From positions 77,743 through 141,742 of the forward strand of contig CAKVHF010000003.1 of assembly GCA_934748015.1 (NCBI GenBank): a DNA stretch of 64,000 bases. The letters are read 5' to 3'. The DNA is from an uncultured Clostridia bacterium. GTDB taxonomy: Bacteria > Bacillota > Clostridia > Christensenellales > UBA1242. This document shows, in pieces, positions 16,622 through 31,154 of this stretch (within the stretch, counting starts at the first letter, position 1; every line of letters begins with the position of its first letter). The notes beneath the pieces are model-generated. The model made no database searches. It saw nothing but the letters and a program-made list of their open reading frames with translations, and was not told the origin of the DNA. A program made the translations under genes and the position numbers.

Positions 16622-19039
16622 ATGTTAGACAAGAAATACAATTTTACAGAAAAAGAAGCAAAGTGGCAAAACTACTGGTTTGACAATGATATTTACAAAT
16701 TTGACGAATCAGGAAGTAAACAAATATACTCTATAGATACCCCACCACCTACCGTTAATGGTAAGATACATATGGGGCACTTATCCTCTTATATGCACAT
16801 TGAGACTATTGCAAGACATCACAGAATGTTGGGTGAAAATGTATACTTTCCATTCGGTTTTGACGACAACGGTCTTCCAACCGAGAGATATGTAGAGAAG
16901 ATTATTAAGAAGAGAGCATACGAGTTGCCTAGGCAGACATTTATCAACATATGTCTAGACGAAACTAAGAAGTTGGAAGAAGAGTTCTTCAACCTATACA
17001 AGTCTGCTGGATTTAGTTGTAACTTAAAAGAGCATTATAGTTCTATCTCTCCAAGAACTCAGAAGATTAGCCAACACTCCTTTATCGAATTATATAAGAA
17101 AGGCAAAATCTATCACACTGAAGCACCTGCTCTATGGTGTACAGAGTGTCAGACTGCTTGTGCTCAGTCAGAACTAGAGGATAAGGAACTAGATAGTACA
17201 TTCAACTATCTTAAGTTCTACATTGCAGGAACTAACGAATATGTTACTGTTGCAACTACTAGACCAGAGATGCTATGTGGTGTTGTATGCGTATTTATTA
17301 ACCCAAAAGACGAGAAAAACAAGCATTTGCTAGAAAAGAAGTTGATTGTTCCATATTTCAATTTCGAAGTAAGTGTATTGACTGACGAATTGGTTGATCT
17401 AGAGAAGGGTTCTGGCGTAGTTATGTGCTGTACCTTTGGTGATAATGTAGATAAGGAATGGCAAAGAAAACATAATTTACCTATCAAAGAGTGCTTTACA
17501 AGTGACGGAAAGATGACTGCACTAGCAAAAGAATTTGCTGGCATGTCAATTGTTGATTGCAGAAAAGCAGTTATCGAAAAATTGAAAGAAAACGACCTAT
17601 TAATCAAGCAAGAAAACATCTCTCACGCAGTATCTACACATGACAGATGTGGCACACCTATTGAGATCGCTGTTAAGAAACAATGGTTTATAGATGTATT
17701 GTCTCACAAAGACGAATTGTACAAGGCAGGAATGGAGTGCAACTGGCACCCTAAGGCTATGCGTGCAAGATATCTTAACTGGGTTGAGAACCTATCTTGG
17801 AACTGGTGCATATCTAGACAGAGATTTTTTGGAATTCCTTTCCCTGTATGGTTCTGTAAAGATTGTGGCAAGCCAAAACTAGCTGAGATCGAAGATCTGC
17901 CAGTAGATCCACTAAGAGATAAGCCAAAGACTGCTTGCGAATGCGGATGCACAGAGTTTGTCGGCGAGACAGATGTTATGGATACTTGGGCAACCAGCAG
18001 TCTAACACCTCAGATCTCCACTGACATGTTTACTGGCAAAGGACTAGATGACAGCATGGTTCCTATGAACTTAAGACCAAACGCACACGATAATATCCGT
18101 GTATGGGACTTCTATACAATTGTTAAGAGCCTATATCACTTCAACAAACTTCCTTGGAAAGATCTAATGATCTCTGGTTATGTAACAAGTTCGGATGGTT
18201 CAAAATTGGCTAAATCTAAGGCAAATAGTTCTAACTCTCCTCAAGAGATTATCAAAAATTATTCTGCCGATGTAACTAGATATTGGGCTAACAACATGAC
18301 ACTAGGCAAAGACACTGCATTCTCCCTAACAGAATTTGATAACGGCAAAAAGTTGGTTAACAAATTGTGGAATGCTAGCAAGTTCGTTCTAAGTTTCTTA
18401 GAGGATTACAATCCTAGAGAAGTTGAACTAGAGATAATGGATAAATGGTTACTAGACAAATACAAAGACATCTATAGCAGATTTATCAAATATCTATCCA
18501 GATACGAGATTGCCCTAGGACTAAACGAACTAGAGAAGTTCTTCTGGTCATTCTGCGATAACTATGTAGAATTGGTTAAACGTAGACTATATAATCCAGA
18601 TATTTATGGCGAAAAGGCATGCGAGTCCGCTAAGTATACATGTTATCATGTACTGCTAGGCATACTTAAGATGTTCGCTCCAGTACTACCTCATATCACC
18701 GAAGAAATATATATGTCTTACTATGCTGAAAAAGAGAATTGCAAGTCTATACACATCTCTGGATATCACGATCTAGGTCATCATGTTGACAAAGATCTAA
18801 TTGAGAAAGGCGACAAAGTACTAGACATTGTAACCATGGTTAGACAATTCAAGTCTGAGAACAAAGTATCTCTTAAGACATTTATCGAGGATATCACTAT
18901 CACATCCAATATCAACGATTTCCTAAAGTTGGCTGAGGTAGATATCAAGGCTGTATCTTCAGCACTTGCTATCAAATATATTGACGGAGACGGATTTGAT
19001 GTTAAGGTTGGCAAAGTAGTAGAAGAGGCAACTGAGTAA
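16622..19039 (+). CDS. valS: Valine--tRNA ligase (~805 aa, no long C-terminal coiled coil)
   Basis: Motifs present are PPPTVNGKIHMGH (HIGH), WCTECQTACAQSE, the editing motifs TTRPEMLCG and GSGVVMCCTFGD, and KLAKS in place of KMSKS. ATG 16622 follows GGAGGAAAC. Confidence 0.85.
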   Translation: MLDKKYNFTEKEAKWQNYWFDNDIYKFDESGSKQIYSIDTPPPTVNGKIHMGHLSSYMHIETIARHHRMLGENVYFPFGFDDNGLPTERYVEKIIKKRAYELPRQTFINICLDETKKLEEEFFNLYKSAGFSCNLKEHYSSISPRTQKISQHSFIELYKKGKIYHTEAPALWCTECQTACAQSELEDKELDSTFNYLKFYIAGTNEYVTVATTRPEMLCGVVCVFINPKDEKNKHLLEKKLIVPYFNFEVSVLTDELVDLEKGSGVVMCCTFGDNVDKEWQRKHNLPIKECFTSDGKMTALAKEFAGMSIVDCRKAVIEKLKENDLLIKQENISHAVSTHDRCGTPIEIAVKKQWFIDVLSHKDELYKAGMECNWHPKAMRARYLNWVENLSWNWCISRQRFFGIPFPVWFCKDCGKPKLAEIEDLPVDPLRDKPKTACECGCTEFVGETDVMDTWATSSLTPQISTDMFTGKGLDDSMVPMNLRPNAHDNIRVWDFYTIVKSLYHFNKLPWKDLMISGYVTSSDGSKLAKSKANSSNSPQEIIKNYSADVTRYWANNMTLGKDTAFSLTEFDNGKKLVNKLWNASKFVLSFLEDYNPREVELEIMDKWLLDKYKDIYSRFIKYLSRYEIALGLNELEKFFWSFCDNYVELVKRRLYNPDIYGEKACESAKYTCYHVLLGILKMFAPVLPHITEEIYMSYYAEKENCKSIHISGYHDLGHHVDKDLIEKGDKVLDIVTMVRQFKSENKVSLKTFIEDITITSNINDFLKLAEVDIKAVSSALAIKYIDGDGFDVKVGKVVEEATE

Positions 19040-19054
19040 CAAAAACAATAAATA

Positions 19055-19089
19055 TGGCATATTAGTTATTCTAATATGTCATTTTTTTG
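19055..19089 (+). terminator. Terminator of valS
   Basis: TGGCATATTAG (19055-19065) pairs with CTAATATGTCA (19071-19081), including one G-U pair. TTTTTTT follows. Confidence 0.8.
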
Positions 19090-19186
19090 AAAAAAATAGT
19101 AAAAACATATTAAAAATAGTTTACAAATTGCTAATTGTAATATACACTTAGTACGTTTAAAAAATTTTTGTGTCCTAGGAGATAGT

Positions 19187-19741
19187 ATGGAAGAAAAACC
19201 AAGATACATCAAATGCCCAAGATGTGAGTTGAATTACATCCTAAGCAACCAAGATTATTGTGAAGTCTGCAAGCAAGAAATGAAAGCAGGCTATCAAGAC
19301 GAAGAAGAAATGGATGAATTGATGATGGAAGAAGGATCAATCTGTCCAATCTGCAAAGTTAACTATATTACTGACGAGTCCAAAGGCATGTGTGATAGTT
19401 GTTACGAAGAAAATAGTACAATCTCTGACAACGATGACAATGTGGACTGGCGTAGTTTTGTTAACAAAGACACAACTGAAGATGAGGATCTAGATCTATT
19501 ACCTGTTGAGAACGATGACGAAATTGATGAAGAACTTGGCAATACTTTTGCTAAAGATCTAGACGAAGACTTTGCTGACAACTTTGATGACGAAGATGAT
19601 GACGAATATAGCGAGTCTGTAGATGATGATGACGACTTTGACGAAACAGACGATGTCGACTTCGATGACGAAGATGATGAGGATGAAGACTTCAATCAAG
19701 ATGATGACGATGATGACGACCCCCTATCCCGTAAGAGATAA
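19187..19741 (+). CDS. Double zinc-ribbon protein with hyperacidic C-terminal half (184 aa)
   Basis: Two Cys4 units are present: CPRC..CEVC and CPIC..CDSC. The C-terminal half reads DEDFADNFDDEDDDEYSESVDDDDDFDETDDVDFDDEDDEDEDFNQDDDDDDDPLSRKR. The start is preceded by AGGAGATAGT. Confidence 0.6.
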   Translation: MEEKPRYIKCPRCELNYILSNQDYCEVCKQEMKAGYQDEEEMDELMMEEGSICPICKVNYITDESKGMCDSCYEENSTISDNDDNVDWRSFVNKDTTEDEDLDLLPVENDDEIDEELGNTFAKDLDEDFADNFDDEDDDEYSESVDDDDDFDETDDVDFDDEDDEDEDFNQDDDDDDDPLSRKR

Positions 19742-19758
19742 TTAAATATTATAATTAA

Positions 19759-19798
19759 ATGACATAGTGAATATATTTTCATTATGTCATTTTTTTCT
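19759..19798 (+). terminator. Terminator after the acidic zinc-ribbon gene
   Basis: ATGACATAGTGAA (19760-19772) pairs with TTCATTATGTCAT (19779-19791), including one G-U pair. TTTTTTT follows. Confidence 0.8.
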
Positions 19799-19843
19799 GT
19801 CTATAACCATATCAGTTATATCCAAATTATTTGGCACTTAATT

Positions 19844-19873
19844 TTGGAGTGAGAGAATGTGGGGATATATAAT
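19844..19873 (+). promoter_or_regulatory. Sigma-A promoter TTGGAG-18-TATAAT for the fibre-like two-gene unit
   Basis: TTGGAG lies at 19844-19849 and TATAAT at 19868-19873, 35 nt upstream of ATG 19909. Confidence 0.6.
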
Positions 19874-19908
19874 ATAATTGCCACCAAGACAGCAAAGGGA
19901 GATAAATC

Positions 19909-20259
19909 ATGTCTACAACTCTGACATCAGCCAAGAATAGCCCACGGATTGATAATGGCGTTATTTATTGGCACGAAGGAGATACTTTTGCGTTGCAGTT
20001 GGATATTACTCTTAGTGACGGAACTAATAACATAACTCTAACAGATGGTAAAACAATATTGGTTAACATTTATCACCAAGACATATTGGTACACCAATTT
20101 CAGTTCACGTCCTTCCCCAATAATAACCAAGTAGTACTTAACTTCAACGAGACAGTAACTAGAAAATTCCCTAAAGGTAAGTACAATTATAACATTGTAT
20201 ATATTGGCAACGATATAACAACAATTGTTGCTAACAACTTAATGGAGGTAGAAGACTAG
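19909..20259 (+). CDS. Small beta-rich protein (116 aa), possibly phage Ig-like or fibre-associated
   Basis: The start is preceded by AAAGGGAGATAAATC. The stop lies 2 nt before the next ATG, suggesting coupled translation. Alternating hydrophobic pattern: GDTFALQLDITLSDGTNNITLTDGKTILVNIY. Confidence 0.45.
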   Translation: MSTTLTSAKNSPRIDNGVIYWHEGDTFALQLDITLSDGTNNITLTDGKTILVNIYHQDILVHQFQFTSFPNNNQVVLNFNETVTRKFPKGKYNYNIVYIGNDITTIVANNLMEVED

Positions 20260-20261
20260 AA

Positions 20262-21812
20262 ATGGCAAACGAAATCAATAACACAGTATCCCCAACTATA
20301 AGTGCAACCGTTAGTTCTACAATTATTAATTGTATCCCCAAAACTATTGCAGATCATATTGCTAACACTAGCAATCCCCATAATGTTACATGTTCCCAAA
20401 TAGGTGCTATGCCATATGACGCAAATATTGTATCAGATGCCAACTACACACATACTGATAACAATTTCAACAACACATACAAGGGTTCATTGGACTCACT
20501 GTCTACAACTTATGCAACTAACACTGCCCTAAGCGAATTGCAAACCCAAGTTAACTCAATGCAATCTAATGTATCTAGTATCACATCCATAGGCAGTAGC
20601 AATTCTAGCAACCTATCCACTATCCAAAGTGATGTAAGTGGCATTAAAACCAAAATTAGTAGTATTGAAAACAGCATAACCTCTGTATCTACGACATCTA
20701 GTAGTAATGCTGGCAAAATCACTACAATAGAAAATTCTATAGTCGAGCTGACTAATAGTATCAATAGTAACACAACCAACATTAGTAGTCTATCTAGTGG
20801 CAAAGTAGATAAGGTGGATGGCAAAGGGCTATCCACTGAGGACTTTACAACCGAACTAAAAACAAAATTAGTCGGACTTAACGCTAGCGGAACATCTGGT
20901 GGTGGTGGGATAACTATTGTACAAAAGAATTATCTATATAATCAGCAATTTAATATCAATCAGCGTAGCAAATCTTCATACCCTGTAGGAACAGCAAAAT
21001 CATATTGTCTAGATAGATGGCAGAAAGATCCAGATGTTGTAGTAACATACGCAAGTAAGCAAAATATTGCCACAGTCAGCAACATGAGTACCACAACTAT
21101 GGAAGGCATATGTCAATTTATTTTTGATCATTCCAACCTACTAGGCAAGCAAGTTACTTTTTGCTTAAAAACATCAACTGGCACATATACCCTAACCAGT
21201 GATGCACTGCCGACCGATCCAGAAACTACTAGTCAAAATACAATATTAAAGACGGTAAGCACTGACTTTGGTGCATTGCAGTTGGAATTTGCAACCAAGC
21301 ACTTCTGCATAAAAATATTACTTAACCCCGCAACTAGCGAAACAGAATATACGACTATTACACCAAAGAGTGCAAAATTGGAAGAAGGCACAGTATATAC
21401 GGGATTGACACTTAATACTAGGGTAATTGATAGTGACGAATGCAGACATTTCTATCAGAAACTATCTTGTCGTTCGGCATACGCAACTGGATTTATTGGC
21501 TATTACCCTACTAAGACTGAATACAATTTGATTTTTCCTCTGAATACCAACTTATATATGACATCTCTTACATTCGTCAAAGACTCTACAAGCAATAATC
21601 CAAAGATATACAAACTGAATGGCAAAACACTTACTTTGACAGACTATCGAACCTTTACTGCAAAGTATAAGGATGCCGATCGTACATTCCTACACATGTA
21701 TATTGATTATGCTGTTGATAACACTGAAATGTTGGGCGATAGTGCAAAAAAATTGGAGTTTTGCTTTGGACAACTGCCTGGATTTGCTGTAGATGCGGAA
21801 ATAACATCATAA
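20262..21812 (+). CDS. Phage tail-fibre-like protein (516 aa)
   Basis: SNPHNVTCSQIGA near the N-terminus. A long Ser/Thr/Asn heptad-like stalk (LSELQTQVNSMQSNVSSITSIG...IENSIVELTNSINSNTTNISSLS). Then GKVDKVDGKGLSTEDFTTELKTKL. A ~300-aa C-terminal globular region follows. These short motifs are the ones I associate with phage tail fibres, from memory and not from a search. Confidence 0.6.
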   Translation: MANEINNTVSPTISATVSSTIINCIPKTIADHIANTSNPHNVTCSQIGAMPYDANIVSDANYTHTDNNFNNTYKGSLDSLSTTYATNTALSELQTQVNSMQSNVSSITSIGSSNSSNLSTIQSDVSGIKTKISSIENSITSVSTTSSSNAGKITTIENSIVELTNSINSNTTNISSLSSGKVDKVDGKGLSTEDFTTELKTKLVGLNASGTSGGGGITIVQKNYLYNQQFNINQRSKSSYPVGTAKSYCLDRWQKDPDVVVTYASKQNIATVSNMSTTTMEGICQFIFDHSNLLGKQVTFCLKTSTGTYTLTSDALPTDPETTSQNTILKTVSTDFGALQLEFATKHFCIKILLNPATSETEYTTITPKSAKLEEGTVYTGLTLNTRVIDSDECRHFYQKLSCRSAYATGFIGYYPTKTEYNLIFPLNTNLYMTSLTFVKDSTSNNPKIYKLNGKTLTLTDYRTFTAKYKDADRTFLHMYIDYAVDNTEMLGDSAKKLEFCFGQLPGFAVDAEITS

Positions 21813-21882
21813 TAAAAAAATTTAAGCAAAATCATATAATAGCATTATTTGATAAGTAACAAAAAAATAAAAAATTAAATAG

Positions 21883-21941
21883 CAAAAAAAAACTAGTCGA
21901 CATTGATTATGCATAGATCAACGATCGACTAGTTTTTTTTT
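21883..21941. terminator. Bidirectional nested-hairpin terminator between convergent genes
   Basis: AACTAGTCGA (21891-21900) pairs with TCGACTAGTT (21925-21934), with an inner stem TTGAT/ATCAA. An A8 run lies on the left and a T9 run on the right. Confidence 0.8.
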
Positions 21942-21951
21942 ACAAATGTTT

Positions 21952-23391
21952 TTAACCAAACAATCCTTTGACAAAATCCAACAAAGGAAGTAATTTGTCA
22001 ATAAAATAATATCCCACTGCCATGCCTACTGTTGCTATAAAACTAATAATCAAAGTAACTCTACCCATTTTGCGTGGTTTAACAAAAATAAGTTGGCATA
22101 TTGCAAATATTATTGACAATAACCCTGCGCCAAGTGCACCCAAAATCACATACATTTGGTTGTTGGTTACATTAAGGAATCTATTGATGTATTCAAATAC
22201 AATATTAGGGTTGGCAATATCTTTCAGCAAATACATCTGGGCAACGACTACGCCTGTCGCAAGAACTGCAAGCGAAATAAATATTATTGACATTACGCCA
22301 GCAAACTTATTGTATTTCTCTTTATCTTTTTTCTTTTTCTTAGTATCATCTTGCTCTGCTACTGGATTGTCGTTATTAGCATTCAGCCCAATAACATCTT
22401 TGTCATCAATAACTATAGGTTTAGTATCGGTTGCCTTATTCTCGCCTGACTCACCCAGATTGGTGTATGGTACATCCTCTGCCTTAACACTTGCGTACTC
22501 ATCCTCTTTTGGCACTTCAATCTTCTCTGGAGTTATTGCACCCAGTGCTACACCACTAGGTTCTTCCTGTGGTTTCTCCTCTGCTTTTTGCTCTTCGGTA
22601 GCCACACTGGATGTATCTTCCGCCAAATTATCCTTAGGTTCTTCCACAGTTGGCTTAATAAGGTCATCTGCAGTGTTATCCACTGCGGTGTTATCTGTCG
22701 TATTATTGTCATCTTGGATGTCAGACTCCTTAATATAGCCCAAGTTAACATCGGTGTCTAGATTAATCTCATCAGATGTATCCTCGTTCTCGAATTCTGG
22801 AACGAAAAATCCATCATCTTGATCATCATTTTGCTCGGCACTTTCGCCCTGAATATCAGATTCAACTTCGGCACTTGTATCAACGGTAGTTTTATCTTCT
22901 GGCTCGTTATCTTTGGGTAATTCAAATGTTTCTGGACTCTCTTCTGGGGCAACTTCAGCCACATCATCGCTAGCATTATCTTCTTCTGCAATTGTCGCAT
23001 TTCCGCTAACAACCGTATTGTTTTGTTCCCAGTCCTCAGGGATAGCAAAATCATTGGCTCGTTCCTTCTCTTTAGCCGACTTTTCGTCCTCTTTAGCCTT
23101 CTCATAAAATGCGTTTAGGTCAAAATCTTCGGAAGAGTCATCCTCTTTGGCAAAAGTAATCTCCTTGGAGTACAGATCTGCAATCTCTTCGTCCTTGTTG
23201 GATACCTTATTAAATTTAGCAGGCTCTTCCTTGTCAACCATTTCTTCTCGTTTAGTCTTCAAAGCACTGGCAAGCGAAGAAATATTAGACATAGCACGTC
23301 TAAGTTCTGCATCTCTATCAACAATTGTACCACATACTCCACAGCGAGTACTATTCTTTGGGATCTCGCTACCACATACACTACATTTCAT
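21952..23391 (-). CDS. Zinc-ribbon protein with a ~330-aa acidic disordered region and C-terminal TM helices
   Basis: N-terminus MKCSVCGSEIPKNSTRCGVCG. A long D/E/T/N-rich low-complexity middle follows. Three hydrophobic helices lie at the C-terminus: FAGVMSIIFISLAVLATGVVVA, VILGALGAGLLSIIFAICQLIFV, VTLIISFIATVGMAVGYYFI. Confidence 0.55.
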   Translation of the reverse strand: MKCSVCGSEIPKNSTRCGVCGTIVDRDAELRRAMSNISSLASALKTKREEMVDKEEPAKFNKVSNKDEEIADLYSKEITFAKEDDSSEDFDLNAFYEKAKEDEKSAKEKERANDFAIPEDWEQNNTVVSGNATIAEEDNASDDVAEVAPEESPETFELPKDNEPEDKTTVDTSAEVESDIQGESAEQNDDQDDGFFVPEFENEDTSDEINLDTDVNLGYIKESDIQDDNNTTDNTAVDNTADDLIKPTVEEPKDNLAEDTSSVATEEQKAEEKPQEEPSGVALGAITPEKIEVPKEDEYASVKAEDVPYTNLGESGENKATDTKPIVIDDKDVIGLNANNDNPVAEQDDTKKKKKDKEKYNKFAGVMSIIFISLAVLATGVVVAQMYLLKDIANPNIVFEYINRFLNVTNNQMYVILGALGAGLLSIIFAICQLIFVKPRKMGRVTLIISFIATVGMAVGYYFIDKLLPLLDFVKGLFG

Positions 23392-23579
23392 TACGCTTTT
23401 CTCACTTTTCGTTTAGCATACTTATACTTAGTATAAAGTATAACAAATATACAAACTACTTGTAAAACAAAAAGGTGCTATTTAATAATTTCAAAAAACA
23501 CCAAACTGTTGTCATCTTTTTTTTATTTAGTCACGACAAATTTTATATAATATCGTGCAAATTTCATAGTCGCTTGCCC

Positions 23580-24155
23580 CTATTGTTTTACCCTTTTAGG
23601 AGATTTCTTAAACAAAGCGACTATCACAGTTGTTGTGATACTAAATATGGCCAAGGTGCAGATATAAGTTACAAAATTAAATATATTTAACTTCGCAAAA
23701 TCTATTTCCTCAAGCCAAAAATACCACTCAATCAACATTATTGTTAATGAAGAAATGTAAATATAAAACAACTGCAAATACATTTTGCCGGAATATAGGA
23801 TACATGGCAAAATTGTTAAAACGATAGTTGTCCAAATGCTATAGTCTATTGACAGAAAAATATTATTTCGAACAAGCATCAAGTATGCACCCGCTATAAC
23901 AAATTGCATTGCAGTAATTGCAAAAAAATTAAATAATGAAACTTGGCTAGCTAAAACCATCAAAGCTACGATAATTGAAGCAACAAAAGGGATGTTGATT
24001 ACAATTCCCTCTCCTATCTTGCAATCACCAAAAAATAGGCTACTGATTAGCCCAAGGCAAATAGCAATTATTGCAAAATCAATTGTTTTGTTACGCAGTC
24101 CAAACACACATATATATACAATGCAAAGTGTTAAAAAAATAATACAAAAAGGCAT
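23580..24155 (-). CDS. Polytopic membrane protein (191 aa)
   Basis: Five to six hydrophobic helices are present. I recognise no motif. Confidence 0.45.
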   Translation of the reverse strand: MPFCIIFLTLCIVYICVFGLRNKTIDFAIIAICLGLISSLFFGDCKIGEGIVINIPFVASIIVALMVLASQVSLFNFFAITAMQFVIAGAYLMLVRNNIFLSIDYSIWTTIVLTILPCILYSGKMYLQLFYIYISSLTIMLIEWYFWLEEIDFAKLNIFNFVTYICTLAIFSITTTVIVALFKKSPKRVKQ

Positions 24156-24213
24156 TATTAGAAATCTCCTATTTGTATTATTATGTTTGAAAAATTTATA
24201 ATTATGTATAGAT

Positions 24214-24702
24214 TTATTTCAACTTGCCAGTGACATCCATGCCAGAATTAACATCATTCTTGAAATCTTCTAGAAAGTCAATGAAGTGTGTCAGATCCGC
24301 AAACTTACGATACACGCTAGCAAATCTAACATAAGCAACATCATCTAATATTTTTAATCTCTCCATAACCATTTCGCCCAACTGCTTAGAAGTGATCTCT
24401 TGGTCAAGATTGTTCTGGATATGTTTATATATATCGCTTACTACAATATCTATCTGCGCCATACTAATTGGTCTTTTCTCGCAAGCACGCAATATTCCCC
24501 TCTTTAATTTGTTAGAATCAAATGCTTGTCTTGTTCCATCACTCTTAACAACCAAAATAGGCATTGTCTCAATGGCCTCAAAAGTAGTAAATCTCTTGCC
24601 ACACTCTAAGCATTCTCTACGCCGTCTTATTGAATTACTTTCGTCATTATTCCTGCTATCTAGAACCTTGCTCTCGGCTTTACCACAAAAAGGACATTTC
24701 AT
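24214..24702 (-). CDS. nrdR: Transcriptional repressor NrdR
   Basis: MKCPFCG...RRRECLECGKRFTTFE is a zinc ribbon. An ATP-cone follows (VVKSDGTRQAFDSNKLKRGI). Confidence 0.92.
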   Translation of the reverse strand: MKCPFCGKAESKVLDSRNNDESNSIRRRRECLECGKRFTTFEAIETMPILVVKSDGTRQAFDSNKLKRGILRACEKRPISMAQIDIVVSDIYKHIQNNLDQEITSKQLGEMVMERLKILDDVAYVRFASVYRKFADLTHFIDFLEDFKNDVNSGMDVTGKLK

Positions 24703-28983: not shown

Positions 28984-29260
28984 ATAATCTCGCTAATATA
29001 TTCATTACCCTTAAATAACAATTGTCACAAATGTAGTCGAATAGCGTAATAAATCATCTCATACAATATATATGCTAATACATATTGTTTTAAAACTTTT
29101 GGCACTAAAATTTGCTTTTGGACAATATACATACTTATAATCATAAGCGTAAATCGAGGTTATTGTCCATATACATCATAACAAAACAGATAAATATTGT
29201 TAATACTGTGACAAATAAGGCAATAATACAAAAAAATATAAACAAAAAAAAGGAGAAAAT

Positions 29261-31154
<1,894 letters not shown>

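Follow-up and report, generated by a model that had tools for sequence, protein, structure and literature searches.

Why would a pair of genes resembling those of phage tail fibers stand among the housekeeping genes of a gut bacterium? The question is posed by genes A (19909..20259, + strand, 116 residues) and B (20262..21812, + strand, 516 residues) of a 64,000-nucleotide stretch of contig CAKVHF010000003.1 from an uncultured Clostridia bacterium, the whole of which is called the window here. The genome of the window (G000) consists of 1.27 Mb in seven contigs (C1, C2, and so on) and is 97.5% complete. The metagenome-assembled genomes of its genus, obtained from rumen, caecum, and the human gut, bear the labels 'uncultured Christensenella sp.' or 'Clostridia bacterium'. 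An earlier interpretation of the window from its letters, the sequence-only reading, described A–B as an orphan phage-tail-fiber-like pair kept as a unit of its own among core genes, which is supported by the phage relatives of the two genes and by synteny in seven species. As to its purpose, the evidence tips somewhat in favor of A–B being the remote adaptor-plus-fiber locus, serving cell recognition, of a multi-locus particle similar to a gene transfer agent (GTA).

The relatives of B are phage proteins. The closest of them, few among 5.8 billion proteins, include P0002 (882 residues), encoded in a 142-kb contig that has been recovered three times and carries Portal_T4, Peptidase_S77, and Gp23, as well as P0004 and P0005 (609 residues), encoded in a podovirus-like contig of ~30 kb alongside Terminase_6, P22_portal, and a protein matching Phage_fiber_rpt. 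P0005 is a full-length relative of B with 48% identity in the C-terminal domain, and P0002 is 94% identical to B over that domain. The N-terminal part of B (residues 1–214; 20262..20903, + strand) comprises a putative attachment region with an NPHNVT motif (residues ~10–60), a predicted helical stalk rich in Ser, Thr, and Asn (~87–178), and a GKVDKVDGKGLSTEDFT motif; conservation of its N-terminus extends to all B orthologues and to the phage fibers P0003–P0005. The two tail-fiber motifs to which the sequence-only reading had pointed, SNPHNVTCSQIGA at residues 37–49 and GKVDKVDGKGLSTEDFTTELKTKL at residues 179–202, are both present. The C-terminal beta-rich domain (residues 215–516; 20904..21812, + strand) is likely to bind the receptor, and it is a module shared with a T4-like phage. 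A word-indexed search with this domain recovered only five relatives; a HMMER search over 1.84 billion representatives recovered 136 distant ones, and the ones that were tested match the C-terminal part of phrog_4492, 'tail fiber protein', at up to 3e-51. The B orthologue of species G023 matches the same family at 6e-13. PHROG matches of B itself are of the short-motif kind (phrog_33574 at 4e-6, phrog_18608 at 1e-5, and the tail-fiber family phrog_8147 at 2e-3). B has no significant match in Pfam, and none by tblastn among 50,697 GenBank phages. Because its relatives are fiber genes in phage structural modules and distant relatives of its C-terminal domain fall in phrog_4492, these comparisons indicate that B is a phage fiber homologue. 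Both genes of the pair derive from phages.

The AlphaFold2 model of the B monomer is of low confidence (predicted local distance difference test, pLDDT, 55). It contains helices at residues 87–105, 116–141, and 147–178, and a beta-rich domain at residues 253–505 with pLDDT of 65–90 in places. Matches of this model in the PDB have template modelling (TM) scores of at most 0.14, which speaks neither for nor against a fiber fold, because the model is too poor for the search to be informative.

The AlphaFold2 model of A is better defined (pLDDT 88) and is an all-beta, immunoglobulin (Ig)-like beta-sandwich. Its matches in BFVD, with TM scores of 0.5–0.7 and E-values of 2e-6 to 1e-3, include phage proteins of ~110 residues at TM scores of 0.6–0.7. 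The top matches are uncharacterised proteins, and those with names are the N-terminal domain of BppU, the LtfC/p132/Gp6 beta-sandwich (both at TM scores of 0.5–0.6), and minor tail proteins. A search of the PDB returned generic Ig-like folds, all with E-values above 1e-3, among which a chain of the TP901-1 baseplate ranked 21st. A matches phrog_1084, a family of unknown function, at 4.5e-6. Relatives of A comprise 127 in IMG/VR and 138 protein clusters, and in gut phages of ~42 kb the gene for a 2,700-residue protein is followed by A and then directly by a fiber gene. A tblastn search of the 50,697 GenBank phages gave one match to A, in an unannotated faecal phage contig, where the adjoining fiber is not related to B. 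In the lactococcal phage TP901-1 (BppU–BppL) and in phage T5 (p132 collar and L-shaped fiber), a small beta-sandwich domain anchors a trimeric fiber or receptor-binding protein to the tail. The model of A resembles these beta-sandwiches, and A is likewise encoded directly before a fiber gene; however, Pfam BppU_N (PF10651) does not match A at E-values up to 1, and the likeness of the folds is that of a generic Ig-like sandwich. Since the gene order in phages, the co-conservation of A with the N-terminus of B, and the fold similar to BppU-N and p132 agree, A is likely to be a fiber-docking adaptor, a role that the modelled fold fits without proving it.

In the comparison of the locus among related genomes, A–B is syntenic and intact in seven species. 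The order valS, a zinc-ribbon/acidic gene, A, B, a convergent zinc-ribbon membrane gene, a membrane gene, and nrdR is retained in 7/7 species of this subclade, and the promoter, ribosome-binding site, and translational coupling of A–B are conserved across it. The frames of both genes are open in all seven species, and the genomes of the genus measure 1.0–1.4 Mb. The same arrangement occurs in at least 20 conspecific metagenome contigs. A–B was found in 7 of the 41 genomes of the genus; a profile search did not find A in the other 34, in which the gene order around the zinc-ribbon gene differs. Across the subclade the identity of valS is 87–91%, that of A is 45–56% among the six sister-species orthologues, and that of the C-terminal domain of B is 23–37%; the N-terminal region of B is conserved. 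The length of B ranges from 252 residues in G035 (locus L018; G035:C41, 3939–4697) to 1,153 residues in G019 (L021; G019:C7, 5641–9102). In G003, B has at least 639 residues (L023; G003:C43, 4667–8509) and is followed by two extra genes, encoding 459 and 182 residues, without a PHROG match. Between the window and another strain of the species, B has accumulated 12 synonymous and 8 non-synonymous changes, and the ratio of non-synonymous to synonymous divergence (dN/dS) within the species is 0.19. The comparisons indicate that the pair evolves fast and under purifying selection. Between the strains (window positions 16574–24702), dS is 0.13–0.155 in valS and the zinc-ribbon/acidic gene, 0.014–0.036 from A through the gene of a 191-residue membrane protein, and 0.066 in nrdR. 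The low values suggest a recent recombinational import or sweep over the fiber locus and its two membrane-protein neighbors. The proteins of the two genes downstream of B (21952–24155), a 479-residue zinc-ribbon/acidic protein with three transmembrane segments and the 191-residue membrane protein, are 28–35% identical between sister species in which valS and nrdR are 80–91% identical; they therefore evolve as fast as the fiber.

The genome of the window encodes a putative particle to which such a fiber could belong. A cluster on contig C2 (G000:C2:223800–235915, ~223.8–235.9 kb, within locus L128 at C2:217000–236900), a different contig from that of the window, includes genes for a sigma-70-region-4 protein (185 residues), TerL, a TerS-like protein, a P22/SU10-type portal, a scaffold, and the major capsid protein, as well as further proteins of 128, 193, 497, 396, and 349 residues, the last of which is a DUF7934 protein. 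The cluster lacks genes for replication, lysogeny, and integration. Its capsid gene is present in a single copy in 39 of the 41 genomes of the genus (27 of the 27 of good quality), the identity of the capsid protein (82–85% in the six closest species and 48–66% in the rest) tracks the phylogeny, and the whole cluster with its flanks is syntenic across the genus. Single copy, identity, and synteny together point to a vertically inherited, domesticated particle, and the cluster looks GTA-like, with a podovirus-like head and stub tail. The one Terminase_6N gene of the genome, and hence its one TerL, lies in this cluster. Searches of the genome for Phage_sheath_1, PhageMin_Tail (tape-measure), and Sipho_tail (Dit) found no match, while control genomes do match, and those for HK97 capsid, Phage_portal, and TerL_ATPase families found none either. 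Within the families searched, the C2 cluster is the only particle system of the genome. A tailocin as the partner of A–B finds no support, as no sheath/tube or tape-measure/Dit tail cluster was found in the 97.5%-complete genome. The sequence-only reading had offered, among other roles, a receptor-binding protein supplied in trans to a tailocin or phage encoded elsewhere; supply in trans fits best of the roles offered, but the partner would be the podovirus-like C2 cluster rather than a tailocin or prophage. Neither A nor B is similar to any protein of the cluster.

The promoter of the sigma-like regulator of the cluster (G000:C2:223720–223890) is conserved in the genus, with an equivalent in 17 other genomes, and contains two TTGTACAA boxes and GTCACAAAATTTTGACA. 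In several species a LexA-box-like CGAACAnnTGTTCG lies near this promoter, which suggests that DNA damage acts as an input in part of the genus.

A promoter element connects A–B to the C2 cluster. Most species have TTTTTGTCAGTAAATTTTGCAA as the extended −35 element of A; further copies lie in the intergenic region between the TerL and TerS-like genes in the subclade with A–B, and before groES across the genus. In the window the copy at A, TTTGGCACTTAATTTTGGAG, occupies 19830..19849 (+ strand) and contains the −35 hexamer TTGGAG at 19844–19849. The second copy in the window, TTTGGCACTAAAATTTGCTT at 29098..29117 (+ strand), which has a position weight matrix (PWM) score of 25.9, the second best in the genome, lies upstream of groES (29261–29560) and groEL (29562–31154). 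The 16-mer TGGCACT[AT]AA[AT]TTTG has exactly three sites in G000, at the A promoter, before the TerS-like gene (C2:226819), and before groES, and none in the reversed control. For species G010 the count is the same: its variant, TGTCAGCAAAWYTTG, has sites at these three promoters and nowhere else, and none in the reversed control. According to the alignment, the variants of the element co-vary by lineage across the three promoters: all three read GGCACT in G000, GTCAGC in G010, and GTCAGT in G023 and G019. A broader 18-nt pattern has 17 matches in five genomes against none in controls, among them the promoters of A, the TerS-like gene, and groES, although in some genomes a promoter escapes the strict pattern. 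In all three promoters the −10 box is positioned 18 nt after a TTGnnn hexamer. The copy at the TerS-like promoter exists only in the subclade that has A–B; in distant species the TerS-like gene abuts that of TerL. The upstream region of TerL shares no motif with that of A. From the shared element it can be inferred that A–B may be co-regulated with the late operon of the C2 cluster, and the sigma-like protein of the cluster is a candidate for the factor acting on it.

The groESL operon has no CIRCE (controlling inverted repeat of chaperone expression), and the one good CIRCE of the genome precedes hrcA (G000:C1:191358). Control of groESL in the genus therefore seems to be independent of HrcA. 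GroEL and GroES are classically needed for the assembly of the heads of phages lambda and T4, which makes a regulon of chaperonin and capsid plausible. The element was also considered as a CIRCE or CtsR box, which is ruled out because hrcA alone is preceded by CIRCE and no gene for CtsR was found, and as a class of stable-RNA promoters, which is ruled out by the lack of a tRNA gene near any site. Elsewhere in the genome, two convergent copies of the motif enclose a 2.4-kb stretch free of open reading frames, with a GC content of 25% (G000:C6:8067–10575, L216). One of the two copies is conserved in species G001, and an Rfam search of the stretch yielded no match and only AT-rich simple repeats.

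If A–B belongs to the C2 particle, one factor acting on the extended −35 element would turn on the late operon (from the TerS-like gene onward), groESL, and A–B. The chaperonin would help the capsid and portal proteins to fold. B would trimerise through its helical stalk, and its conserved N-terminus would dock through A onto the stub tail. The variable C-terminal domain of B would bind a surface receptor of conspecific cells, to which the released particles would then deliver their packaged DNA. In evolutionary terms, the ancestor of the subclade may have gained A–B from a phage and brought it under the same promoter element as the late operon and groESL.

Several observations weigh against this assignment. 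A–B is present in 7 of the 41 genomes, whereas the C2 cluster is genus-wide, which means that most species manage without A–B. The variable protein of 260–400 residues that the cluster itself encodes after a nozzle-like gene could be the native receptor binder. No homologue of A or B lies within 10 kb of a related capsid gene in 48 IMG/VR contigs, and the phages that carry A have no detectable relation to the C2 cluster. The motif patterns were built from the very sites that they recover, and the independent evidence for the element consists only of the lack of other matches and the covariation. One or two further strict sites per genome lie ahead of other targets. A PWM search finds 31 sites above 14 bits against one in the control, the additional sites being weaker; since the element also drives groESL, it could mark a general class of stress or strong promoters and not a regulon specific to the particle. 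The −10 hexamers differ as well: TATAAT for A and groES, and TACTAT for the TerS-like gene.

The signals around A and B delimit a self-contained unit. An intrinsic terminator at 19757..19798 (+ strand), a 15-pair stem followed by a T-run, ends the preceding zinc-ribbon/acidic gene and forms the 5′ boundary of A–B; a hairpin with a T-run directly 5′ of the A promoter occurs in 7/7 species of the subclade. The −10 hexamer TATAAT at 19868–19873 (+ strand) is separated by 18 nt from TTGGAG, which makes a sigma-70-type promoter. A scan of G000 alone with the sigma-70 consensus found 9 sites against 11.4 expected from shuffles, no better than chance; despite this null result the A promoter is supported, because it is conserved in seven species. 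An additional element after the −10 hexamer, ATAATTGCCACCAAG (within 19868..19888, + strand), surrounds the likely transcription start. In the form ATAATTGCCA(A/C)CAA (19874–19888) it has been kept in all seven species, in which GCCA and its flanks are invariant, and is unique in the genome, as is the composite TATAAT...ATTGCC motif, with its single occurrence. As a candidate operator or 5′ leader, it may add a second, locus-specific layer of control. The idea that TAATTGCCAACAAA of this element links A to the particle cluster was dropped, since it occurs only at the A promoter and was not found in the cluster. The stop codon of A (TAG, 20257–20259) is followed by AA and then by the ATG of B. 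A bidirectional intrinsic terminator (21884..21941), preceded by an A-run and followed by a U-run, is shared by B and the convergent zinc-ribbon membrane gene. It has a folding energy of −24.1 kcal/mol (z = −8.95), and none of 200 shuffled sequences folds as well.

These features agree with what the sequence-only reading had reported: the coupled pair of 116 and 516 residues with its 2-nt gap, the TTGGAG-18-TATAAT promoter, which is conserved in seven species, and the strong terminator have all been confirmed. The host-like composition that it noted holds too, with a GC content of 35.3% in A and 36.9% in B against 35.9% in the window. The neighbors were correctly named as valS (956 bits in NCBIfam) and two flanking proteins that are both zinc-ribbons with acidic regions. 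In genome-wide family searches, the contig of the window had no match to terminase, portal, HK97 capsid, sheath, tape-measure, Dit, or integrase families, in line with the reported lack of phage genes. The translated open reading frames of ~85 phage loci match that contig only at A–B and at genes with BspA-type leucine-rich repeats (LRR_5). Neither an integrase gene nor attachment-site repeats nor any further phage genes are present in the A–B locus, and the two tyrosine recombinases of the genome are both on contigs other than that of the window. That the window might be the edge of a prophage had been deemed unlikely, and both flanks are indeed conserved cellular genes in seven species.

The tip of B is shared with a T4-like phage. 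Residues 218–516 of B are 93–94% identical in amino acids, and 90.3% in nucleotides over 928 bp, to the C-terminus of the 882-residue phage protein P0002. The junction at residue 218 is sharp, and the similarity is absent upstream of it and past the stop codon. Between the host and phage copies of the tip dS is 0.37 and dN is 0.034 (dN/dS 0.09). In the phage, the tip segment has a GC content of 35.5%, and 30.4% at third codon positions (GC3), in contrast to 27% and 9.5% in the remainder of the same gene and a GC content of 26.2 ± 3.2% in the whole phage contig. The values of the host copy are 36.6% (GC) and 30.8% (GC3). Because the composition of the segment is host-like inside the phage, the tip probably moved from host to phage, and the simplest reading is that the T4-like phage captured it from the B gene of the host lineage. 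A third source of similar composition may alternatively have supplied it. The family of the C-terminal domain also occurs in the B orthologues of the sister species, and the domain of G000 is nearer to the phage copies (94% and 48% identity) than to those of sister species (23–37%), which suggests repeated exchange. That a lytic phage carries the domain implies that it functions as a receptor binder in a phage of this host. The C-terminal modules of fibers swap between phages and cryptic-prophage genes of E. coli, as known for T-even phages, lambda, P2, and Mu. The exchange described here is similar in that the swap is domain-precise, only the C-terminus moves, and the junction is sharp. It differs in that the chromosomal partner is a stand-alone, species-conserved locus rather than a cryptic prophage, and in that the composition indicates transfer from host to phage. 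It is possible, though doubtful, that the late operon, groESL, and a hot-swappable fiber cassette constitute a three-part regulon under one factor, in which groESL would be freed from HrcA and CIRCE and the cassette would donate receptor-binding domains to lytic phages.

The same evidence can be read without the particle. A–B might be a domesticated fiber module with an anti-phage role, unrelated to the GTA-like particle: the fiber could mask the cell's own receptor after the lysis of kin, or adaptor and fiber could spoil or mis-target the progeny of infecting phages. Purifying selection together with fast C-terminal divergence would be expected of an arms race, and presence in one subclade only is common to many defence genes; the exchange of modules with lytic phages would also fit. 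The near-consensus sigma-70 promoter could be constitutive. The anti-phage reading leaves the covariation of the A element with those of the late operon and groESL unexplained. A and B have no secretion signal, so that masking of the receptor would need lysis, and a fiber binding the host's own receptor would aid an infecting phage. PADLOC models give only coiled-coil noise. An anti-phage role is regarded as unlikely. The phage origin of A and B, a tip in G000 that is closer to phage (94% and 48%) than to the sister copies, and the dip in dS from A to the membrane gene among strains could alternatively mean that A–B is the leftover of an ancient prophage, or a cassette kept by phage recombination, a reservoir of receptor-binding domains without a function for the cell. 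This reading is quite unlikely. Against it stand the intact frames in seven species with reduced genomes of 1.0–1.4 Mb at 87–91% identity of valS, the purifying selection on substitutions, the conserved promoter, ribosome-binding site, and coupling, and a locus devoid of integrase, attachment repeats, and further phage genes.

The sequence-only reading had also proposed surface or spore appendages and adhesins, of the BclA/C1q exosporium type, which B would form with the help of A. The predicted fibrous architecture of a helical stalk with a globular beta-rich tip, the host-like composition, and the housekeeping neighbors would suit them. However, neither A nor B has a signal peptide, lipobox, sortase motif, S-layer-homology or cell-wall-binding domain, or collagen-like Gly-X-Y repeats, B has no Pfam collagen or C1q match, and no anchor was found. 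All detectable relatives are phage structural genes, and no solved structure of an appendage was matched, although the model of B is poor for this test. These roles are thus unsupported and very improbable.

GTAs have long been known mainly from Alphaproteobacteria. In the Rhodobacter capsulatus GTA (RcGTA), the fiber gene rcc00171 and the head-spike genes rcc01079/rcc01080 are remote from the structural cluster, and these recognition loci are fast-evolving, patchy, and exchanged with phages (Hynes et al. 2016, PMC5026251). The system described here is similar: a vertically inherited head–tail cluster is accompanied by candidate recognition genes at separate, patchy, faster-evolving, and phage-exchanged loci. 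By contrast, RcGTA is siphovirus-like, belongs to Alphaproteobacteria, and is controlled by CtrA and GafA, whereas the particle of the present genus would be podovirus-like, belongs to Clostridia, and has a sigma-70-region-4 regulator. Co-regulation has been shown for RcGTA and is suggested here by the shared promoter element, which, unlike in RcGTA, also drives groESL. A podovirus-like GTA in gut Clostridia was described only in 2026 (Borodovich et al. 2026, PMC12946183). This GTA of Faecalibacterium prausnitzii (FpGTA) has an operon I, encoding TerS, TerL, portal, scaffold, and capsid, and an operon II ~125 kb away, encoding baseplate, tail fiber, receptor-binding protein, holin, and endolysin, the proteins of which were found in particles by proteomics (PMC12946183). 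GTA-like packaging has also been reported for metagenome-assembled genomes of Christensenellaceae (PMC12946183). According to the description in that paper, FpGTA and the present system have in common the gut Clostridia host, a podovirus-like head and packaging operon of ~10 kb, and a second locus for fiber or receptor-binding protein in only some strains. They differ in that the A–B locus lacks holin and endolysin genes, and in that the operon II proteins of FpGTA are known components of its particles, whereas A and B are putative ones. A profile of A found no locus in Faecalibacterium among 185,579 species genomes.

Multi-locus GTAs and podovirus-like GTA-like clusters in gut Clostridia are thus already known. 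New are the adaptor-plus-fiber cassette, its conservation at the level of species, the element co-varying with that of groESL, and the compositional evidence for the capture of the tip. To our knowledge, the genes by which such particles recognize their recipients are largely unknown, and the locus provides a concrete candidate for a recognition module in an abundant, uncultured gut lineage, with a regulatory link at the level of sequence that ties together particle genes, chaperonin, and fiber genes. If the transfer from host to phage is true, domesticated fibers are a reservoir for changes in phage host range, and if the three-part regulon exists, a gene-transfer machine owned by the host would directly contribute to how phage host range evolves. 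Should it be confirmed, the promoter element could serve as a simple finder of scattered GTA-like parts in metagenome-assembled genomes.

The genome also contains a CRISPR (clustered regularly interspaced short palindromic repeats) array (G000:C4:55850–57200). Its repeat, GTTATAGTTCCCTAATTTCTTTTTATATGGTATAAT, measures 36 nt, and its distinct spacers number 16, each of 30 nt, with one block of four spacers occurring in duplicate; the 16 spacers have no match in the phage loci compared. All seven contigs encode LRR_5 (BspA-type) domains, at ~30 places in total, such as G000:C1:23970–24551 and C3:67327–68244. These domains are common to many host genes and to phage proteins encoded beside fiber genes (a 317-residue protein of L004 and a 475-residue protein of L096), with up to 48% identity.

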